A stretch of DNA of 64,000 nucleotides from Oscillospiraceae bacterium (lineage in GTDB: Bacteria > Bacillota > Clostridia > TANB77 > CAG-508). Positions 2,886 through 49,474 of the stretch are shown piece after piece; positions within the stretch are counted from its first letter, which is position 1; the number at the start of each line of letters is the position of its first letter. The stretch lies in assembly GCA_009778695.1 (NCBI GenBank), contig WRFS01000007.1, positions 7,753 to 71,752 of the forward strand, given 5' to 3'. A program made the position numbers and the translations under genes. The notes under the pieces are model-generated. The model was given only the letters and a program-made list of their open reading frames with translations. It was not told the DNA's origin and searched no databases.

Positions 2886-5624
2886 TTGGAACAAGATGAT
2901 GAAAACTATAAATATAAATTTTCAGTAATTATACCAATTTATAATGTTGAAAAATATCTGAAAGAAGCCATAGATAGTGTTATAAAACAGACCATTGGAT
3001 TTAAGAAAAATATACAAATTATTTTAATAAATGATGGAAGCCCAGACAACAGCGAGGCTATTTGTGAAGAATATGTTGAAAAATATCCTGACAATATTAT
3101 ATACATAAAACAAAAAAATGCAGGGGTTAGTGCTGCAAGAAATAATGGAATGCAATATATTGAAGGTAAATATGTAAGCTTTTTAGATGCAGATGATAAA
3201 TGGGAGAAGACTGTGTTTAAAAAAGCTTATAAAATGTTTGAAAAAAATGAAGATGTGGATGTAATTGGAGTTAGAATAAAATTTTTTGAAGCATCAAATA
3301 AATTTCATTATTTAGATTATAAGTTTAATAGAGATAAAGTAATAAATATTTTAAAAGAATATAATCATCTTCAGCTAGCTGTTACATCAGCGTTATTTAA
3401 AGCATCAGCGATTAAAGATGTAAGGTATGACGAAAAATTAAAATATGCCGAAGATTCAAAATTCATTTTTAATGTTTTAATTAAAAAGTGTAATTTGGGA
3501 ATTATTGCATCTGCCAAACATTTATATAGAAAAAGATATTCTGATGATTCGGCAATACAAAGAAAGAAACAAGACTTTAGTTGGTGTACAGTTGTACCGT
3601 ATAATTGTTATAAATATGCATATGAAAAATCAATAGAAAAATTTGGGAAAGTGATTTCTTATGTTCAATATTATGTTGCAAATGAATATTATTGGGCTCT
3701 TAAAGAATATAAACCGGGGATTTTAGACGAAGAGACCTTACATAAATATTTCGAAGTTACGAAAGAATTATTTAAAGGGATAGAAGACAAAATAATTACA
3801 GATAGGTTATTTTCTGATTATTTATATAGAACTTACTTCCTATCTTTAAAACATAAAAAAGATATAACAAAAGAATTAATAGTTCAGAATAATAAACTGT
3901 ATTACTATGATTCTTGTGTATATGATTTTGGTATTAATGATAATAATAAGATTCTTGTAATAAATAATTTAAATTATGAAAATGATGAATTAACCTTTGA
4001 AGGTCAAGTGGGTTGTAATATTCCAAGAAATATGTATAAGATGTATGCAATTACCAGTGAAAAAAAATATGAAGTGAACTTATACGAAACAAATTTAGAC
4101 AATAAGTATGGATTTGATGATATATTGTACGGACGTAAATACGGGTTTAATATCACTTTACCAATAAATATAAAACAAATTAAATTTGTATTGGAGCTAA
4201 AAGAAAAAGGGAGTATTTCATTACCTTTAAATTTCACTACAAATTCAAGATTAACAAGAAGTAGAATAAATTATACTATTAGGGGAGAAAAATTGCTTTA
4301 TGTGAAAAGTCCAGTTATACAGCTTATTAATAAAAAAGGAAATGTAATTAAATTTAAATTTTTATATGCTTTGCAATTATTAGCAAAGGCTAAATTTAAA
4401 GTTTTATTTACAAGAAGCTTATATTATATATTAAAACCATTTTATAGAAAAGAAATATGGATAATATCTGATAGACGTAATACAGCTGGGGATAACGGAA
4501 TGCACTTATTTAAATATTTGTGTGAAAAAGAAAAGTCAAAAAATATACAACCATATTTTACTGTTGATAAGAATTCGGTTGATTATGGGAAGATGAAACA
4601 AATTGGGAAAACCGTTGCTATCAATTCGTTAATGTACAAATTATTATTTTTGATGTCGGAGAAATTTATTTCTTCTCAAGCGGATAATTGGGCTTTTGAT
4701 ACTTTTGGAGATGATGAGATTTATTATAGAAATTTACTTAAATTTGATTTTATATTTTTACAACATGGAATTACACATAATGATGTATCAAGCTGGTTGC
4801 ATAAATTAAAAAAGAATATAAAAAAATTTATTACTGCTTCAGAACTAGAGTATAATTCAATAGTTAATGGTTCTTATGGATACACAAGTAGAGAAGTAGT
4901 TTTAACAGGATTTCCAAGGTATGATAATTTATTAGATGAAAAAGAAAATATAATCGCAATTATGCCAACATGGAGATCAAACTTAGTTGGTAAGTATGAT
5001 AAAACTGCAATGATAAGGGAGTATAATAAACTATTTGTTAAATCAGATTACTTTAAATTCTTTAGCGAATTATTAAGAGATAGAAAATTAATTGAAAAAT
5101 TAGAGAGATATGGATATAAAATAGAATTTGTGCTTCATCCAGCTACTTTAACTCAAGTAGTTGACTTTAAAAATATTGAAAATGAGTATATAAGTATTTT
5201 AAAAGAGGGTATTGATTACCAAGAAATATTTAAAAAATCCGCATTACTAGTAACAGATTATTCAAGCGTAGCTTTTGATTTTGCTTATTTAAGGAAGCCA
5301 GTTATGTATAGTCAATTTGATTTTGAGGCGTTTTATGCACAACATGTGCATGATAAGGGTTATTTTGATTATGCAAGAGACGGATTTGGACCAGTTACGG
5401 ACACATACGAAGATACCATAAATAAAATAATTGGGTTTATAGAAAACGATTGTAAAATAGATGATATGTATTTAGAAAGAATAAATAAATTTTATAAATT
5501 TAATGATCGAAATAATTGCAAAAGAGTATATGATGCAATTTTGAATGATAAACAAATTGATATAAAGGAGAAAAATTATGCAAAAACAAATAACACAAAC
5601 AATCGCCAACGAATTAAACATTAA
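2886..5624 (+). CDS. Bifunctional GT2 glycosyltransferase / CDP-glycerol glycerophosphotransferase (TagF/TarF-like)
   Basis: N-terminal GT2 signature (FSVIIPIYNVEKYL, LDADD). C-terminal half has TagB/TagF-type motifs (FLQHGI, PTWR, VLHP). 912 aa. Confidence 0.75.
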   Translation: MEQDDENYKYKFSVIIPIYNVEKYLKEAIDSVIKQTIGFKKNIQIILINDGSPDNSEAICEEYVEKYPDNIIYIKQKNAGVSAARNNGMQYIEGKYVSFLDADDKWEKTVFKKAYKMFEKNEDVDVIGVRIKFFEASNKFHYLDYKFNRDKVINILKEYNHLQLAVTSALFKASAIKDVRYDEKLKYAEDSKFIFNVLIKKCNLGIIASAKHLYRKRYSDDSAIQRKKQDFSWCTVVPYNCYKYAYEKSIEKFGKVISYVQYYVANEYYWALKEYKPGILDEETLHKYFEVTKELFKGIEDKIITDRLFSDYLYRTYFLSLKHKKDITKELIVQNNKLYYYDSCVYDFGINDNNKILVINNLNYENDELTFEGQVGCNIPRNMYKMYAITSEKKYEVNLYETNLDNKYGFDDILYGRKYGFNITLPINIKQIKFVLELKEKGSISLPLNFTTNSRLTRSRINYTIRGEKLLYVKSPVIQLINKKGNVIKFKFLYALQLLAKAKFKVLFTRSLYYILKPFYRKEIWIISDRRNTAGDNGMHLFKYLCEKEKSKNIQPYFTVDKNSVDYGKMKQIGKTVAINSLMYKLLFLMSEKFISSQADNWAFDTFGDDEIYYRNLLKFDFIFLQHGITHNDVSSWLHKLKKNIKKFITASELEYNSIVNGSYGYTSREVVLTGFPRYDNLLDEKENIIAIMPTWRSNLVGKYDKTAMIREYNKLFVKSDYFKFFSELLRDRKLIEKLERYGYKIEFVLHPATLTQVVDFKNIENEYISILKEGIDYQEIFKKSALLVTDYSSVAFDFAYLRKPVMYSQFDFEAFYAQHVHDKGYFDYARDGFGPVTDTYEDTINKIIGFIENDCKIDDMYLERINKFYKFNDRNNCKRVYDAILNDKQIDIKEKNYAKTNNTNNRQRIKH

Positions 5625-7824
5625 CGAATCGCAAGTAAAAAGCACGGTAGCTTTAATCGATGATGGAAACACAATTCCATTCATTGCACGTTATAGAAAA
5701 GAAGCAACGGGGGGATTAAGCGATGAAACATTGAGAAATCTATATGACAGATTAACATATTTACGAAATTTAGAAGAACGAAAAGCCGAAGTTTCAAGGT
5801 TAATCGAAGAACAAGGCAAGCTCACAGAAGAGCTTCAAAAAGCAATTGAAAACGCAATTACTTTAGCCGAAATAGAAGATATTTATAGGCCATATAAGCA
5901 AAAAAAGAGAACGAGAGCTACAATTGCAAAAGAAAAAGGATTAGAGCCACTTGCTACTATTATTTATGAACAAACAGAAACAACACCATTAAATAAAATT
6001 GCAGAGCAATTCTTAAACCCAGAAAAAGAAGTAAATACGGTTGAAGAGGCGATTGCTGGGGCATTAGATATTATTGCAGAAAATATTTCGGATGAGGCAA
6101 GATTTAGAAAAAACATCAAAAGTATGTGTTTTAGAGAAGCGGTTATTTGGGCGAAAGCAGCAAAAGAAGAAAAGTCTGTATATGAGATGTATTATGATTA
6201 TTCTGAGGCGATTTTAAGAATGCCAAGCCATAGAATTTTAGCAATAAACAGAGGTGAAAAAGAAGAATTTTTAAAAGTAAAATTAGAAAAACCAGAAGAA
6301 AAAATTATAGAAATGATTGAAAATTACATAATTAAAAAAGATAATAATCAATTTACGAACATATTAAAAGACACTATTTTAGATAGTTACAAGAGATTAA
6401 TCGAACCATCTATTGAGAGGGAAATAAGAGCAGACTTAACAGAAAAGGCAGAGGAGAAAGCAATAAAGGTGTTTGGACAAAATGCAAAACAGCTATTGCT
6501 TCAACCACCTATGAAAAATGTTAGAGTAATTGGATTCGACCCAGCATATAGAACGGGATGCAAAATAGCTGTAATAGACGAAACAGGCAAAGTTTTGGAT
6601 ACTAATACAATTTATCCAACAGAGCCTCAAAATGATGTTATCGGTGCGAAAAAGACATTGCTTGGATTAATAAATAAGCATAAAGTAAATATAATTGCTA
6701 TTGGGAATGGTACAGCTTCTAGGGAATCTGAACAATTCGTTTCAGAGGTGTTAAAAGAATGCAAAGAAAAAGTATATTACGCAATTGTAAGTGAAGCTGG
6801 GGCTTCAGTTTATTCAGCATCAAAGCTGGCAACAGAGGAATATCCGGATATAAACGTTTCAATAAGAGGTGCTATTTCAATAGCTAGAAGGTTGCAAGAC
6901 CCATTAGCTGAATTGGTAAAAATAGACCCAAAAGCAATAGGTGTAGGGCAATACCAACATGACGTGAATCAAAAAACTTTATCTGAAAGCTTAACTGGAG
7001 TGGTAGAAGATGCAGTAAATTCAGTAGGCGTTGATGTAAACACAGCAACTCCATCACTACTTACATATGTAGCTGGAATAAATTCAGGCATTGCAAAAAA
7101 TATAGTAATGTATAGAGATGAAAATGGAAAATTTACTGAACGAAAACAGTTGTTAAAAGTAGCTAAATTAGGCAAAAGTGCATTTGAACAATGTGCAGGT
7201 TTTACAAGGATATTTGGTGGTAAAAATTTATTAGAAATGACAGCAGTTCATCCAGAAAGTTATAAGGCAACAGAACAATTACTAAGCAAATTGGGTTACA
7301 CCGTGAAGGATTTGGAAGATAAAGAAAAATTCGAACAATTAAAAGGGTCATTAAAAAATTTGTTACCCGTAGGGGCGAGCATTGCTCGTCCGAACGTAAC
7401 AAATTCAGGCGTGACGAATTCAGGCATGACAAATCCGGACGAGCAATGCTCGCCCCTACAAGAAACGGCAGAAGAATTAGGTATAGGCGAGATGACATTG
7501 TCTGATATTATAAACGAATTATTAAAACCAGGGCGTGATCCAAGAGAGAGTTCACCTAAACCAATATTAAGGGCAGACATATTAAAGTTTGAAGATTTAA
7601 GAGAAGGCATGGTGTTAAATGGAACCGTAAGAAATGTAATTGATTTTGGTGCATTTGTGGATATTGGCGTAAAAAATGATGGCTTAGTACATATTTCTGA
7701 ATTAGCAGACAAATACGTAAAAAGCCCATCAGAGATTGTTTCTGTTGGAGATGTGGTAAAGGTGAAAGTTATTGGATTGGATATGGATAGGCACAAGGTA
7801 AAGCTCAGTATGAAAAATGTTTGA
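5578..7824 (+). CDS. tex: Transcription accessory protein Tex (S1 RNA-binding domain protein)
   Basis: IPFIARYRKE N-terminal motif, YqgF-like and HhH regions, C-terminal S1 domain (GMVLNGTVRNVIDFGAFVDIG). RBS AAGGAG. Carries a palindromic insert at 7369-7459. Confidence 0.9.
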   Translation: MQKQITQTIANELNINESQVKSTVALIDDGNTIPFIARYRKEATGGLSDETLRNLYDRLTYLRNLEERKAEVSRLIEEQGKLTEELQKAIENAITLAEIEDIYRPYKQKKRTRATIAKEKGLEPLATIIYEQTETTPLNKIAEQFLNPEKEVNTVEEAIAGALDIIAENISDEARFRKNIKSMCFREAVIWAKAAKEEKSVYEMYYDYSEAILRMPSHRILAINRGEKEEFLKVKLEKPEEKIIEMIENYIIKKDNNQFTNILKDTILDSYKRLIEPSIEREIRADLTEKAEEKAIKVFGQNAKQLLLQPPMKNVRVIGFDPAYRTGCKIAVIDETGKVLDTNTIYPTEPQNDVIGAKKTLLGLINKHKVNIIAIGNGTASRESEQFVSEVLKECKEKVYYAIVSEAGASVYSASKLATEEYPDINVSIRGAISIARRLQDPLAELVKIDPKAIGVGQYQHDVNQKTLSESLTGVVEDAVNSVGVDVNTATPSLLTYVAGINSGIAKNIVMYRDENGKFTERKQLLKVAKLGKSAFEQCAGFTRIFGGKNLLEMTAVHPESYKATEQLLSKLGYTVKDLEDKEKFEQLKGSLKNLLPVGASIARPNVTNSGVTNSGMTNPDEQCSPLQETAEELGIGEMTLSDIINELLKPGRDPRESSPKPILRADILKFEDLREGMVLNGTVRNVIDFGAFVDIGVKNDGLVHISELADKYVKSPSEIVSVGDVVKVKVIGLDMDRHKVKLSMKNV
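7369..7459. repeat. REPIN-like inverted doublet of GTAG-headed GC-rich hairpins, inside the tex coding frame
   Basis: GTAGGGGCGAGCATTGCTCGTCCG (7369-7392) and its exact reverse complement (7436-7459). The spacer holds three 15-nt tandem units (GTAACAAATTCAGGC-like). Confidence 0.9.
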
Positions 7825-7844
7825 AAAATATTAAAAAACGCATT

Positions 7845-7969
7845 GTCATTCTGAGACTTACTTCGTAGTCCAACTTACGAAGAATCTTACTTTATCTATT
7901 TTCATTTGTATACCTACCATTTAGTAAGATTCTTCGTGAGCAAGGCTTTGTGGCAACGCTCAGAATGAC
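7845..7969. repeat. Palindromic element, GTCATTCTGAG...CTCAGAATGAC family, copy 1
   Basis: Termini GTCATTCTGAG (7845-7855) and CTCAGAATGAC (7959-7969); inner arms CGAAGAATCTTAC / GTAAGATTCTTCG. Lies between tex and a convergent small ORF. Confidence 0.85.
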
Positions 7970-7991
7970 ACCTACTTGTTTTTATTCTTAT

Positions 7992-8291: not shown

Positions 8292-8404
8292 CTCCGTAAA
8301 AGAAATTTTAAATGAATGAAAATATCATCGATATCGTTGATATTATATAATATGTTAATAATGGTTAAATGGTGCTAATTATACTTTTGTGCGTACAGAC
8401 TACT

Positions 8405-8564
8405 ATTTAACAGTCTAGTCCAAAATTTCCGCCTCTGGAGTATAGTATATCTTTTAAAAAGGCTCCTCCAAGTCTTCGAAGACTCCATGGGCCTCAAAGG
8501 GCTGTCGTTCACCTTTTTAAAAGATATACTATACTCCAGAGGCTATTTTGCTGGAAAGTGTTAA
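8405..8564 (+). repeat. Conserved-loop long hairpin element, copy 1 of 5
   Basis: Inner hairpin 8428-8542: 32-bp stem closing the loop GGCTCCTCCAAG..CTCAAAGGGCTGTCGTTCACC. Outer arms TTTAACA / TGTTAAA. Confidence 0.9.
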
Positions 8565-8585
8565 AGACCCACTAGGGGGTCTTTT
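8564..8585 (+). terminator. Rho-independent terminator-like hairpin immediately after hairpin-element copy 1
   Basis: AGACCC-ACTAGG-GGGTCT followed by TTTTT on the + strand. It also lies just downstream of the minus-strand helicase gene. Confidence 0.45.
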
Positions 8586-8600
8586 TGTACATACATTCTA

Positions 8601-47309: not shown

Positions 47310-48257
47310 TTGTTTACAAGTTTTAGATTAAGGATAGCGAATTTCTTTAGAAAACATAAAAAAACGGTATTTGGGATATTATTAGCATGGGTAATAATAA
47401 TATTTATAAATGATTTCTTTAAAAGTAATACTTTTGAAAGTTTTCAAAGAACTACATATAGCCCTGATGTACCAATAATTGACATTACTGGTCAAACGGT
47501 ACCAGACAATTTAAAACAGCCAATAAATGATTTGGTGGATACATATTTTAATTATTGCAATACAAAGCAATATGATAAGGCATACGCAATGCTTTCACAA
47601 CAATGTAAAACCATATACTATCCAACATTGCAGGATTTTAAGGATTATGTTGATATGGTATTTAACGAAAATAAAGTATATTATATGCAAAATTATTCAA
47701 ACTACAATAATGTTTATATATACAGAATTAGAATAATGGAAGATATACTAAAAACAGGGTTAACTGGCGAAAGTGATATACAATATTATGAAGAGAAAAT
47801 TGCAATAAGTCAAGATGCGAATGGTAAATTATGGTTGTCAATTAGGGAGTTTATAACAACAGAACCTATGGACGTAGTTTATGAAGATGATTATATGAAA
47901 GTTAGAGTGCTTCAAAGGGATGTTTTTTATGAGAATGAAACGTATACTGTGGAGGTAAAGAATAAATCGGATTATATTATGGTATTAGCAGATGGCACTG
48001 AAAATCCAGAGATAGCTTTGCAGGTTGGTTCTTCAACAAGAACGCCAAATGATAGTAATTTGTATGTTGTTCTTCAACCAGGTGAAACAAAAACGTTTAC
48101 TGTGAATTTCACTAAATTTTATGATGAATCAGATCAGTCAACAGGGTTGACATTTAATGCGGTAAGAGTGCTTAAAACGTATTCAGGCTCTCCTGATACT
48201 AAGCAATATGAATTGGATAACGCAGTGAAGTTGTATAGTACACAAGTGGTATTTTAG
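47310..48257 (+). CDS. N-terminally anchored two-domain protein, NTF2-like plus beta-rich domain
   Basis: TM anchor, then YFNYCNTKQYDKAYAMLSQQCKTIYYPTLQDFKDYV. TTG start. Last gene of the co-directional block. Confidence 0.4.
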   Translation: MFTSFRLRIANFFRKHKKTVFGILLAWVIIIFINDFFKSNTFESFQRTTYSPDVPIIDITGQTVPDNLKQPINDLVDTYFNYCNTKQYDKAYAMLSQQCKTIYYPTLQDFKDYVDMVFNENKVYYMQNYSNYNNVYIYRIRIMEDILKTGLTGESDIQYYEEKIAISQDANGKLWLSIREFITTEPMDVVYEDDYMKVRVLQRDVFYENETYTVEVKNKSDYIMVLADGTENPEIALQVGSSTRTPNDSNLYVVLQPGETKTFTVNFTKFYDESDQSTGLTFNAVRVLKTYSGSPDTKQYELDNAVKLYSTQVVF

Positions 48258-48270
48258 TATAAAATGCCAC

Positions 48271-48416
48271 TTAACATGTCCGCTTGTGGTGGTTAGTATA
48301 TATTTTAAAAAGGCTCCTCCAAGCCTCCGAAGACTCCATGGGCCTCAAAGGGCTGTCGTTCACCTTTTTAAAATATATACTAACCACCACAAGCTACTCT
48401 ACAAAAAAAGTGTTAA
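48271..48416 (+). repeat. Conserved-loop long hairpin element, copy 3 of 5
   Basis: Inner hairpin 48280-48394, stem GCTTGTGGTGGTTAGTATATATTTTAAAAAGG and its complement. Outer arms TTAACA / TGTTAA. Confidence 0.9.
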
Positions 48417-48478
48417 ATAGTAACTGTTAGTATAAAAAATCTCTTATTGGTAAATACTGCCAGTAGGAGGTTTTTATA

Positions 48479-49216
48479 ATGAAAAGAATATATTTATTAG
48501 TTATAGTTTTTTTTCTTACCGTTATGCTATTTTTTGTTTCAAAAAATGATAGCTTAGCCATGTTGAGCTACGAAAAGCCAAGTTTTACATCAGCTTCGGT
48601 AACAGCTAGTGTGTTAAATGTTAGACAAGGTCCAGGTACACAATATAAGGTTGTAACTCAAGTAAAGAAAAATGCTACTGTAAGAATTTTTGCAAAAATA
48701 GGAAATTGGTATGTAATTCAAACAGAGGACAACCATATAGGTGTGGTTTCCAAGGACTATATTAAAGGACATACAAATACAGCAGGGGCATCAACTTCAA
48801 CTGGGAATAGTGGGTCAAGCACAGCAACTACAACAATAAGTGATGAGGATGATGTTTTAAATCGAATAAATGCAGAAAGGAAGAAGGCAGGGCTTCCAGC
48901 ATTAGTTATGGATAAAGATTTGCAAAAAGTGGCTAAAGTAAAAGCACAAGATATGGTAAAGAACAATTATTTTTCTCATACTTCACCAACATATGGTTCG
49001 CCTTTTGATATGATGAAAAGCTATGGAATAACATATAAAGTAGCAGGTGAAAATATAGCAGGAAATTCAACTAATGCAGGGGCAGTTTCTGCATGGATGG
49101 CATCTTCAGGGCATAAGGAAAATATATTGAATAGTGCATATAATTATACTGGAATAGGTGTTGTGAGTAGCCCAAAATATGGTAAAATTTATGTGCAAAT
49201 GTTTGTGGGAAGGTGA
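48479..49216 (+). CDS. Secreted SH3b + CAP/SCP (YkwD-like) domain protein
   Basis: Signal peptide, SH3_3-like ASVLNVRQGPGTQYKVV..GNWYVIQ, CAP-domain motifs YFSHTSPTYGSPFDM..GENIA..GHKENIL. Confidence 0.8.
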   Translation: MKRIYLLVIVFFLTVMLFFVSKNDSLAMLSYEKPSFTSASVTASVLNVRQGPGTQYKVVTQVKKNATVRIFAKIGNWYVIQTEDNHIGVVSKDYIKGHTNTAGASTSTGNSGSSTATTTISDEDDVLNRINAERKKAGLPALVMDKDLQKVAKVKAQDMVKNNYFSHTSPTYGSPFDMMKSYGITYKVAGENIAGNSTNAGAVSAWMASSGHKENILNSAYNYTGIGVVSSPKYGKIYVQMFVGR

Positions 49217-49224
49217 TTTTTTTA

Positions 49225-49372
49225 ATGGGTTAATCTAAAGTTTCCGCCTCCTTAAGTATAGTATAGCTTTTAAAAAGGCTCCTCCAAGTCAAGGGGTAAT
49301 CCGTATGCCTCAAAGGGCTGTCGTTCACCTTTTTAAAAGCTATACTATACTTAAGAAGGCTACTTTGTATGA
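49225..49372 (+). repeat. Conserved-loop long hairpin element, copy 4 of 5 (variant loop)
   Basis: Inner hairpin 49244-49360 with one stem mismatch. A 20-nt loop sub-segment is replaced by an equal-length different sequence (TCAAGGGGTAATCCGTATGC). Confidence 0.85.
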
Positions 49373-49474
49373 TAAGAAAAAATCGGTTTTGGGTGACATA
49401 AAAAATATACATTTATTAAAAATAATAGGTATGCGTTTTGCTTTGTAATAAAGGGTTACGCCGTTTTGGGGAAT

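Follow-up and report, generated by a model that had tools for sequence, protein, structure and literature searches.

The stretch of DNA analysed here, referred to below as the window, comprises 64,000 nucleotides of an Oscillospiraceae metagenome assembly. It has a G+C content of about 31% and shows a strong positive GC and purine skew on its plus strand. Its genes include those for Tex, a DnaB-like protein (minus strand), a 315-aa protein and a YkwD-like protein, and the window also has a type IV secretion/conjugation gene cluster. Five copies of a long hairpin element are scattered among these genes, at spacings of 13.5, 26.4, 1.0 and 12.9 kb (Table 1). The loop 21-mer CTCAAAGGGCTGTCGTTCACC was found at five sites of the 64-kb window, all on the plus strand (positions 8493, 21957, 48344, 49309 and 62252), where shuffled sequences gave an expectation of about zero. 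The 21-mer covering the clamp and part of the loop, TTTTAAAAAGGYTCCTCCAAG, led to the same five plus-strand sites, again with about zero in shuffles. A covariance model run over the whole window with filters off returned only these five, scoring 112–145 bits on the plus strand and 58–69 bits on the reverse strands, and an HMM search found the same copies and none besides. The original prediction of five plus-strand copies in the window was thus confirmed by exact matches and by the covariance model.

The element measures about 160–185 bp (typically about 175 bp). This is more than was originally predicted, as the terminal inverted repeats lie outside the predicted spans, by up to about 30 nt per side. 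In alignments, the ends were seen to be terminal inverted repeats of 13–19 bp, GTTACTAGTTAAC...GTTAACTAGTAAC, with the consensus GTTACTAGTTAACAG... on the left and ...CTGTTAACTAGTAAC on the right. The form GTTACTAGTTAACAG(C)TTT is present at both ends in the related contigs L010 and L007 and is degenerate in the other copies. Alignment of 12 full copies gave the order 8-bp flank, terminal repeat, spacer, palindrome and 49-nt loop, followed by the mirror image. The spacer is asymmetric (left AGCCTAAAACTTCC versus right CAGCAAAGTA, given as the reverse complement). The palindrome is perfect over 32–34 bp and consists of a variable block followed by the clamp TTTTAAAAAGG. In the window, the inner arms of 32–34 nt are 100% complementary in copies 1, 2, 3 and 5 and 97% complementary in copy 4. 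On re-reading, the stem sequences first quoted for copies 1–5 proved correct except for one slip in copy 5, where GGCTCC is actually GGTTCCTCCAAG (GGTTCC). This C-to-T change in the loop adds one base pair, and the arms of copy 5 are therefore 34 bp long. The single mismatch reported for copy 4 was also seen, as was the replacement of its loop middle, which reads TCAAGGGGTAATCCGTATG instead and is homologous to the long form of the element in L010.

Table 1. Positions of the hairpin elements and accompanying features in the window.
Feature	Position	Strand	Remarks
Copy 1, full element	8399..8572	+	Left terminal repeat ACTACTATTTAAC, degenerate
Copy 1, inner arms	8431-8462 / 8512-8543	+	Loop 8463-8511
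Copy 2, full element	21862..22037	+	Left terminal repeat GTTACCAGTTAAC, right end GTTGACTAGTCGA
Copy 2, inner arms	21894-21926 / 21976-22008	+	
Copy 3, full element	48265..48424	+	Type II arms GCTTGTGGTGGTTAGTATATA
Copy 3, inner arms	48282-48313 / 48363-48394	+	
Copy 3, right terminal repeat	48412-48424	+	GTTAAATAGTAAC
Left direct repeat flanking copy 3	48254..48264	.	TTAGTATAAAA, target-site duplication
Right direct repeat flanking copy 3	48427..48437	.	TTAGTATAAAA
Copy 4, full element	49215..49384	+	Begins at the stop codon of the YkwD-like gene
Copy 4, inner arms	49246-49278 / 49328-49360	+	One C.A mismatch
Copy 5, full element	62157..62333	+	Left terminal repeat GTTACTATTTAAT, right end GTTAATTGGTAAAC
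Copy 5, inner arms	62189-62222 / 62270-62303	+	34 bp
Short G+C hairpin with T-run	8563..8588	+	AAAGACCCACTAGGGGGTCTTTTTGT; terminator-like, possibly bidirectional
Related element	10415..10563	+	Outer arms GTTACCAG-TTTTCTCCAAGATGT ... TTAATTAGCGAC, as in the main element
Second copy of the other hairpin family	7362..7466	+	In-frame insertion in the Tex gene

Different parts of the element are conserved to different degrees. Among the five window copies, pairwise diversity was 0.44 at the termini, 0.25 in the variable stem and 0.00–0.04 in the two central blocks, which agrees with the original statement that the loop is far better conserved than the stems. The low central and high terminal diversity suggests, on the sequences compared, a constraint on the centre of the element. 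The gradient runs opposite to the transposase-driven pattern, as the termini are the most diverse part and the centre the least. Part of the interior of the long form is homologous to the two invariant blocks of the loop (TTTTAAAAAGGCTCCTCCAAG and GCCTCAAAGGGCTGTCGTTCACCTTTTTAAAA). It had also been stated that no conserved reading frame exists, and this was found to be so: stop-to-stop frames of 30–69 aa differ between copies. A word-indexed search found no protein homologues of the frames across the element, and an exhaustive search returned two unrelated repeat proteins only. A small ORF was rejected as an explanation, because the frames are not conserved and have no ribosome-binding site.

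Copy 1 lies on the plus strand although it is situated between two minus-strand genes. Its right end is degenerate and overlaps the next hairpin. The DnaB-like gene on the minus strand has its stop at 8601, and the hairpin lies immediately 3′ of that stop. This hairpin, originally described as a terminator, does fold, but a terminator scan made no call there. Copy 2 is located between divergent genes, and the right-hand gene has its own promoter-like site (22063–22092) downstream of the copy. Copy 5 is flanked by an 11-nt direct repeat, ATTTTTGTTAA, at distances of 6 and 13 nt from its two ends. All five window copies are on the strand of positive GC skew, which was taken as the leading strand, even where the local genes oppose it (p about 0.06). 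Such uniformity within the window is not predicted for a cut-and-paste MITE; five out of five is weak statistically. The element had been said to lie always on the same strand. This holds within the window but not beyond it: both copies in L009, a contig of another metagenome assembly, are antisense to all genes and opposite to the contig skew, and L007 has a short and a long copy on opposite strands. Relative to flanking genes, about six copies are sense, about four are antisense and two are in divergent promoter regions. As the orientation relative to genes is mixed, a cis-acting, orientation-dependent role in mRNA is unlikely. Five copies sit 0–16 nt past a stop codon in sense orientation. 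A function as promoter or terminator was also considered and rejected; only a weak TTCACC-16-TATACT motif recurs (9/12 matches), and the counts were not above those in shuffles.

A scan of JGI metagenomes revealed seven true contigs with eight further copies. The copies are dispersed, with five in 64 kb and at least eight more on these seven contigs; 12 of them are full short copies, besides cut, mid-length and long ones. Apart from the element, the JGI contigs have nothing in common with the window, genes included. Two other JGI candidates, L005 and L011, were discarded as chance hits inside a high-GC ABC transporter gene. Neither the short nor the long form matched PLSDB plasmids or INPHARED phages, neither the loop 21-mer nor the long-form module matched IMG/VR, and two different patterns gave no match in the GTDB representative genomes. 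An Rfam scan, which had been proposed with the prediction, gave no family in the window at gathering thresholds and none in eight related loci at E<=1. Relaxing the limit to E<=10 brought up nothing beyond generic hairpin hits to models of eukaryotic microRNA precursors, with 13–33 bits against thresholds of 50–158.

Target duplications were identified at related loci. In L010, an exact 8-bp duplication abuts both ends of the element (TTGACAAC-GTTAC...GTAAC-TTGACAAC). A mini form of 58 bp, made up of the outer arms only and without the hairpin, was found in the sister species (contigs L014 and L015), and in L014 it is also enclosed by an exact 8-bp duplication (TTTACCCT-GTTAC...GCAAC-TTTACCCT). 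In the window, the left repeat TTAGTATAAAA runs directly into copy 3, which is followed by TG and the right repeat; this duplication can be counted as 8–11 bp. The site of copy 3 is empty in three relatives (L018, L019 and L020), whose YkwD is 80–93% identical to that of the window. They have one copy of TTAGTATAAAA only, and the distance from the 315-aa gene to YkwD is 54–55 bp, compared with 221 bp in the window with copy 3. The comparison of orthologous loci suggested with the prediction thus revealed presence and absence of the element at this site, and the insertion of copy 3 is lineage-specific. In the sister species (L014), the place of copy 1 is not cleanly empty but taken by another foldback, about 520 bp long, and the gene downstream is not the same as in the window. 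Downstream of copy 4, all the relatives compared show rearrangements.

Therefore, the target duplications in related contigs and the empty site at copy 3 indicate a mobile, non-coding element of the MITE type. The unit of transposition has terminal inverted repeats of 13–19 bp and makes an 8-bp target duplication. Its small size, lack of coding capacity, terminal inverted repeats, target duplication, empty site and dispersed copies are all features of MITEs, and it fits the definition summarised in PMC3184786 save for its autonomous partner. MITEs also typically fold as long stem-loops (PMC3184786). The original prediction had separated the hairpins from MITEs and had itself named clear target duplications as a distinguishing mark. 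That separation fails, because terminal inverted repeats, exact 8-bp target duplications and a site empty in three relatives were found. Convincing target duplications were seen in only two or three of the 12 short copies, and mismatched flank pairs give loose 8-mer matches in 9% of cases. In the proposed search for a transposase, neither transposase nor integrase domains turned up in about 40 window ORFs, in the 8.7-kb left extension of the window or among the annotated neighbours of the related loci. The long forms with the same left arm (L007 and L010) run off contig ends. The element would be mobilised by a DDE-type transposase that acts in trans and makes 8-bp staggered cuts.

We found that the same ends also occur without a hairpin, around another palindrome, or around other sequence of 150 to more than 300 nt. 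L008 has a 155-nt insert between the same arms, and L007 and L010 have more than 300 nt of modular sequence within them, which in L010 leads into a homologue of the variant loop in copy 4. Similarly, the type II inner arms of copy 3 hold other contents elsewhere. As the same ends have differing contents, the hairpin is exchangeable cargo. Judged by their sequences, the short copies look like one cargo variant, or an internal-deletion derivative, of a wider family. Within the window, the related element at 10415–10563, whose outer arm was compared with L008 and L007, differs in its inner palindrome (GTAGGGGCGAACATCGTTCGTCC) and has a loop of unrelated sequence. The stretches flanking it (10402–10415 and 10562–10576) form a perfect inverted repeat and not a direct one. 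This palindrome belongs to a second hairpin family; between its copy at 10434 and the copy at 7362–7466, the arms have three differing positions, each mirrored in the opposite arm. No solo copy of the outer arms was observed in the window. About 90 kb of the relatives' loci (Tex 76–93% identical) contained no full copy, just the 58-bp mini form.

Covariation was analysed in the 12 full copies, five from the window and seven from the JGI metagenome contigs. Among 384 cells of 32 stem pairs, 99.0% were paired, compared with 39–59% in slid controls. Changes on both sides were found in 11 of the 32 pairs, and none of 500 shuffles reached the observed values. The claim that the stems covary far above chance was therefore upheld. 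Only one G.U occurred in the 384 stem cells, and no pair was one-sided in its variation. Transversions made up 7 of the 13 kinds of double change (GC<->UA, AU<->UA and CG<->GC); a double change of this type cannot pass through a wobble intermediate. Insertions and deletions were mirrored as well. They are of three kinds, with the clamp reading T4A5/T5A4, T5A5/T5A5 or T5A4/T4A5, and copies 2, 4 and 5 have an extra base in both arms. One copy of L009 (L009b) has a clustered 3-nt replacement in one arm only, like a type II arm, which looks like an intermediate that was not yet mirrored. In addition, the palindromy reaches into otherwise unique flanks in L003, L004 and L008 and at 10402/10562. The second hairpin family has a copy within the Tex coding sequence, and still its three arm changes are mirrored.

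Mirrored changes that are purely Watson-Crick, transversions, mirrored indels and a second family in a coding gene all point to homogenisation of the arms at the DNA level. It is most likely, as far as can be read from the copies, that the mirrored arm changes arise by template switching between the arms rather than from a functional RNA. Template switching homogenises and expands the arms of inverted repeats and can create or maintain hairpins, at least in the systems that these papers describe (PMC7202029, PMC8794818, PMC8604942, PMC13100816). One arm would first acquire a change through slippage, point mutation or patchy conversion from another copy. Intramolecular template switching at replication, within the palindrome or quasipalindrome, would then either remove this change or transfer it to the opposite arm. 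The two arms would thus change together and keep perfect Watson-Crick pairing. Template switching may also extend the palindrome into the flanks and erase target duplications, which would be why most copies have no recognisable one. The arm-to-arm correction mentioned in the original prediction is the best account of the mirrored changes, but a dedicated enzyme is not needed for it. Taken together, we assign a probability of about 0.6 to the reading that the five hairpins are a non-autonomous MITE-type element whose mirrored stem changes result from template switching between the arms.

The main competing interpretation, a selected RNA structure carried by the MITE, with stems that covary since the fold is needed, is possible though unlikely. 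Such an RNA could be a small RNA transcribed on its own and pairing with ribosome-binding sites through its C/U-rich loop (CUCCUCC, CCUCC, CUCC and CCUC), or it could be double-stranded RNA serving as an RNase III, stabiliser or insulator element within mRNAs. It would account for the strong stem covariation and for central blocks that are invariant while the termini decay. The fold is also very stable (z about -9.5 to -10.4), the plus-strand loop has four motifs like anti-Shine-Dalgarno sequences, the C-to-U change of two copies keeps the loop pair only as G.U on the plus strand, and the five sense copies just after stop codons fit as well. The bcr1 repeat, transcribed and with compensatory changes according to the account in PMC3184786, offers a precedent. 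However, the near absence of G.U, the transversions in half of the double changes and the mirrored indels are not what an RNA fold would leave, and general marks of functional RNA such as wobble intermediates and an orientation tied to transcription were not seen. The minus strand folds equally well or better in most copies, and a strand test based on the loop quasi-palindrome, whose three transition mismatches are all G.U when read on the minus strand, was not significant (p about 0.25). Furthermore, no promoter signal rose above shuffles, no Rfam family matched, orientation relative to genes was mixed, and the other hairpin family behaves alike inside a coding sequence. The structured RNA put forward in the original prediction is therefore unlikely. 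An intermediate interpretation keeps the MITE as the vehicle and regards the hairpin-loop module as an exapted, strand-specific functional unit, either a single-stranded-DNA hairpin or an RNA rich in anti-Shine-Dalgarno motifs, with its blocks selected and the ends decaying; we regard this as improbable.

The original prediction had also offered a strand-specific single-stranded-DNA hairpin, recognised by an enzyme of the HUH/Y1 type; a variant would be a single-strand origin or promoter as in rolling-circle plasmids and conjugative elements. In its favour, the strand of positive GC skew has all five window copies, copy 1 amid minus-strand genes among them, perfect Watson-Crick stems fit pairing in DNA, the conserved loop could serve as a recognition site, and a conjugation gene cluster is present in the window. 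This proposal is nevertheless highly improbable, as 8-bp target duplications and terminal inverted repeats are foreign to that mechanism and indicate double-strand insertion with staggered cuts. The scanned ORFs of the window and the neighbouring loci include no HUH/Y1 gene, the L009 copies oppose the local skew, L007 has both orientations, and the five-of-five bias is statistically weak and confined to the window. Integron-type attC sites, or an attC cluster without integrase in which the bracketed single genes are cassettes, would explain a structure that is kept while its stem sequence varies, the common orientation, the GTTAAC-like motifs in the ends, and the pairs of copies 954 bp apart (around YkwD) and 1354 bp apart (around a gene of L009). 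The GTTRRRY core, however, fits just two of eight right ends, the stems are 97–100% perfect without extrahelical bases, the spacing elsewhere is 13–26 kb with no array, and the scanned ORFs include no integrase. YkwD is at the same place in relatives without flanking copies. Because there is an empty site with a target duplication, the attC interpretation is effectively refuted. Practically no weight can be given either to an assembly artefact in which a palindromic repeat was collapsed so that its arms became mirrored. The window is indeed a metagenome assembly, and independent Logan contigs break at the elements, but the same architecture with other arm variants occurs in independently assembled JGI contigs, and Logan contig L002 has the inner flanks of copies 3 and 4 around YkwD. 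The arms also differ between copies, and the copies have too little identical sequence in common to be collapsed.

Compared with known hairpin MITEs (Correia/NEMIS, ERIC, YPAL/RU-2 and RPE; PMC3184786), the element is similar in being shorter than 200 bp and non-coding, in folding over its whole length as a stem-loop, and in its terminal repeats, target duplication, dispersed intergenic copies and presence or absence between relatives. RPE also inserts in frame into genes, like the related hairpin family in Tex. Our element showed no sequence similarity to anything catalogued, and it departs from the known hairpin MITEs in several respects: conservation is lowest at its termini and highest at its centre, it has an internal palindrome, perfect over 32 bp and distinct from the terminal repeats, that evolves in concert, its ends can enclose interchangeable cargo, and no partner IS is known. 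As described in PMC3184786 (after Okstad 2004 and Klevan 2007), bcr1 of the B. cereus group is a repeat of about 155 bp with 5-bp direct repeats and a cruciform of two stem-loops, transcribed and with compensatory changes. It is like our element in being a Firmicutes repeat of similar size with features of a mobile element and a stable predicted structure with compensatory changes. The two are set apart, as far as that description goes, by the 8-bp duplication, the single long hairpin and the Clostridia MAG host of our element, in which the compensation is almost purely Watson-Crick, indels included. Template-switch mutagenesis of quasipalindromes, in the form outlined in PMC7202029, PMC8794818, PMC8604942 and PMC13100816, explains the mirrored multi-nucleotide changes and indels, the perfect arms without wobble and the outward spread of the palindrome. 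As a mutational process it is not a family of elements, and its action here is deduced rather than directly seen. Inversion of the spacer, which template switching would occasionally produce, was absent from the 12 copies.

REP/BIME with RAYT and the palindromes derived from IS200/IS605 are short hairpins of about 20–40 bp without terminal inverted repeats or target duplications, and they are tied to a Y1 transposase. They are like our element as repeated intergenic hairpins, with a possible strand bias and recognition of a single-stranded-DNA hairpin. Our element differs in having terminal repeats and making an 8-bp duplication, and the window and the neighbouring loci yielded no Y1 gene. Integron attC sites have R''/R' core sites (RYYYAAC / GTTRRRY) and extrahelical bases in an imperfect stem, and they form a cassette array beside intI. 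Structure is conserved above stem sequence in both, and both have a common orientation, but our element has no R/L core sites, extrahelical bases, array or integrase, and it has a target duplication.

The element thus appears to be an uncatalogued MITE family or superfamily from uncultured Clostridia, with GTTAC...GTAAC ends, an 8-bp duplication and interchangeable hairpin cargo. MITEs are a kind of family already known, and what is added here is an internal palindrome that evolves in concert. The results also call for caution, as perfect covariation in a repeated hairpin alone does not prove a functional RNA; mirrored changes almost exclusively of the Watson-Crick type, mirrored indels and growth into the flanks are better explained by template switching at the DNA level. 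Given a full-genome census, the family could become a quantitative measure of template switching. The one feature that could still indicate exaptation is the reversal of the conservation gradient, the centre being invariant while the ends decay. It was also observed that the outer helix has some G.T pairs and that the loop helix AGCCU/GGGCU tolerates a C-to-U change, both of which are weakly RNA-like.

Several foldback families are present in the lineage of the window organism and its sister species. In the sister species (L014), a foldback that differs from the element found in the window occupies the site orthologous to copy 1. This intergenic spot has received more than one insertion. Another palindrome, the window's second copy of the other hairpin family, lies inside the coding sequence of Tex. 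It adds approximately 30-35 extra residues to the protein, which are missing in relatives at 68-77% identity. A 90%-identical Tex homologue (P0002) also holds an insertion at the same position, of different sequence. In two related loci (L016 and L017), Tex was called as two pieces, with the break near the palindrome position. A third palindromic repeat family has two copies in the window, one just past the stop codon of Tex and the other just past that of dnaK.

Features identified in the window and in related or element-bearing loci
Feature	Location	Description
Palindromic element, 105 nt	window 7362-7466	within Tex ORF 5578-7824, in frame; arms GTAGGGGCGAGCATTGCTCGTCC
Third palindromic repeat family	window 7844-7970 and 57507-57606	pattern TGTCATTCTGAG...CGAAGAATC...GATTCTTCG...CTCAGAATGACA
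Bracketed gene with its two copies, window	48265-49384	YkwD; copies sense
Bracketed gene with its two copies, L009	739-2280	313-aa ORF; copies antisense
Conjugation/type IV secretion-like gene set	window 24730-36175	topoisomerase IA, PrgI, VirB4-like ATPase, NlpC/P60 hydrolase
Foldback element, ~520 bp	L014 12590-13100	inverted repeats ~85 bp, ATTCTTCGTTATTTCGCGTGGGTAA...; site orthologous to copy 1
Tandem repeat, 4 copies of ~20 nt	L018 6740-6830, same in L019	GTGCAAATCACTCCGATGAAA-like; between YkwD and AAA_14/DUF4143 gene
Repeat of ~129 nt, 2 copies, 88% identical	L007 2869-2997 and 3746-3874	internal 48-nt palindrome
434-aa ORF	window 16953-21273 region	UvrB-interaction domain only
983-aa ORF	window 16953-21273 region	CarD/TRCF RID, DEAD helicase, TRCF, then MRM3-like/SpoU rRNA methyltransferase domain

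In two places, one in the window and one in the metagenome contig L009, a single gene lies between two copies of the element in the same orientation. The two copies in L009 have approximately 26 extra nucleotides in common on their right (a 214-nt match), and each is followed by an identical minus-strand terminator-like hairpin. Because both copies share this flank and hairpin, the sequence suggests a segmental duplication or a co-mobilised flank. In L007, another metagenome contig bearing the element, both copies of the ~129-nt repeat fall within or overlap long plus-strand ORFs, as judged by ORF coordinates. The ~20-nt tandem repeats of L018 and L019, relatives with an empty site at copy 3, look like an operator or iteron.

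The conjugation/type IV secretion-like set also holds three VirB2/T4SS-pilin-like proteins. Beyond it come very large proteins (964, 755 and 1731 aa) with no Pfam matches. The last three ORFs of this block (1731, 179 and 315 aa), just upstream of YkwD, are kept in the sister species (L018). Mfd appears to be both split and fused in the window (the 434-aa and 983-aa ORFs). No Rfam family reached its gathering score in the whole window (1-64000), and therefore no tRNA, riboswitch or leader was found at these scores, which is unusual for 64 kb.
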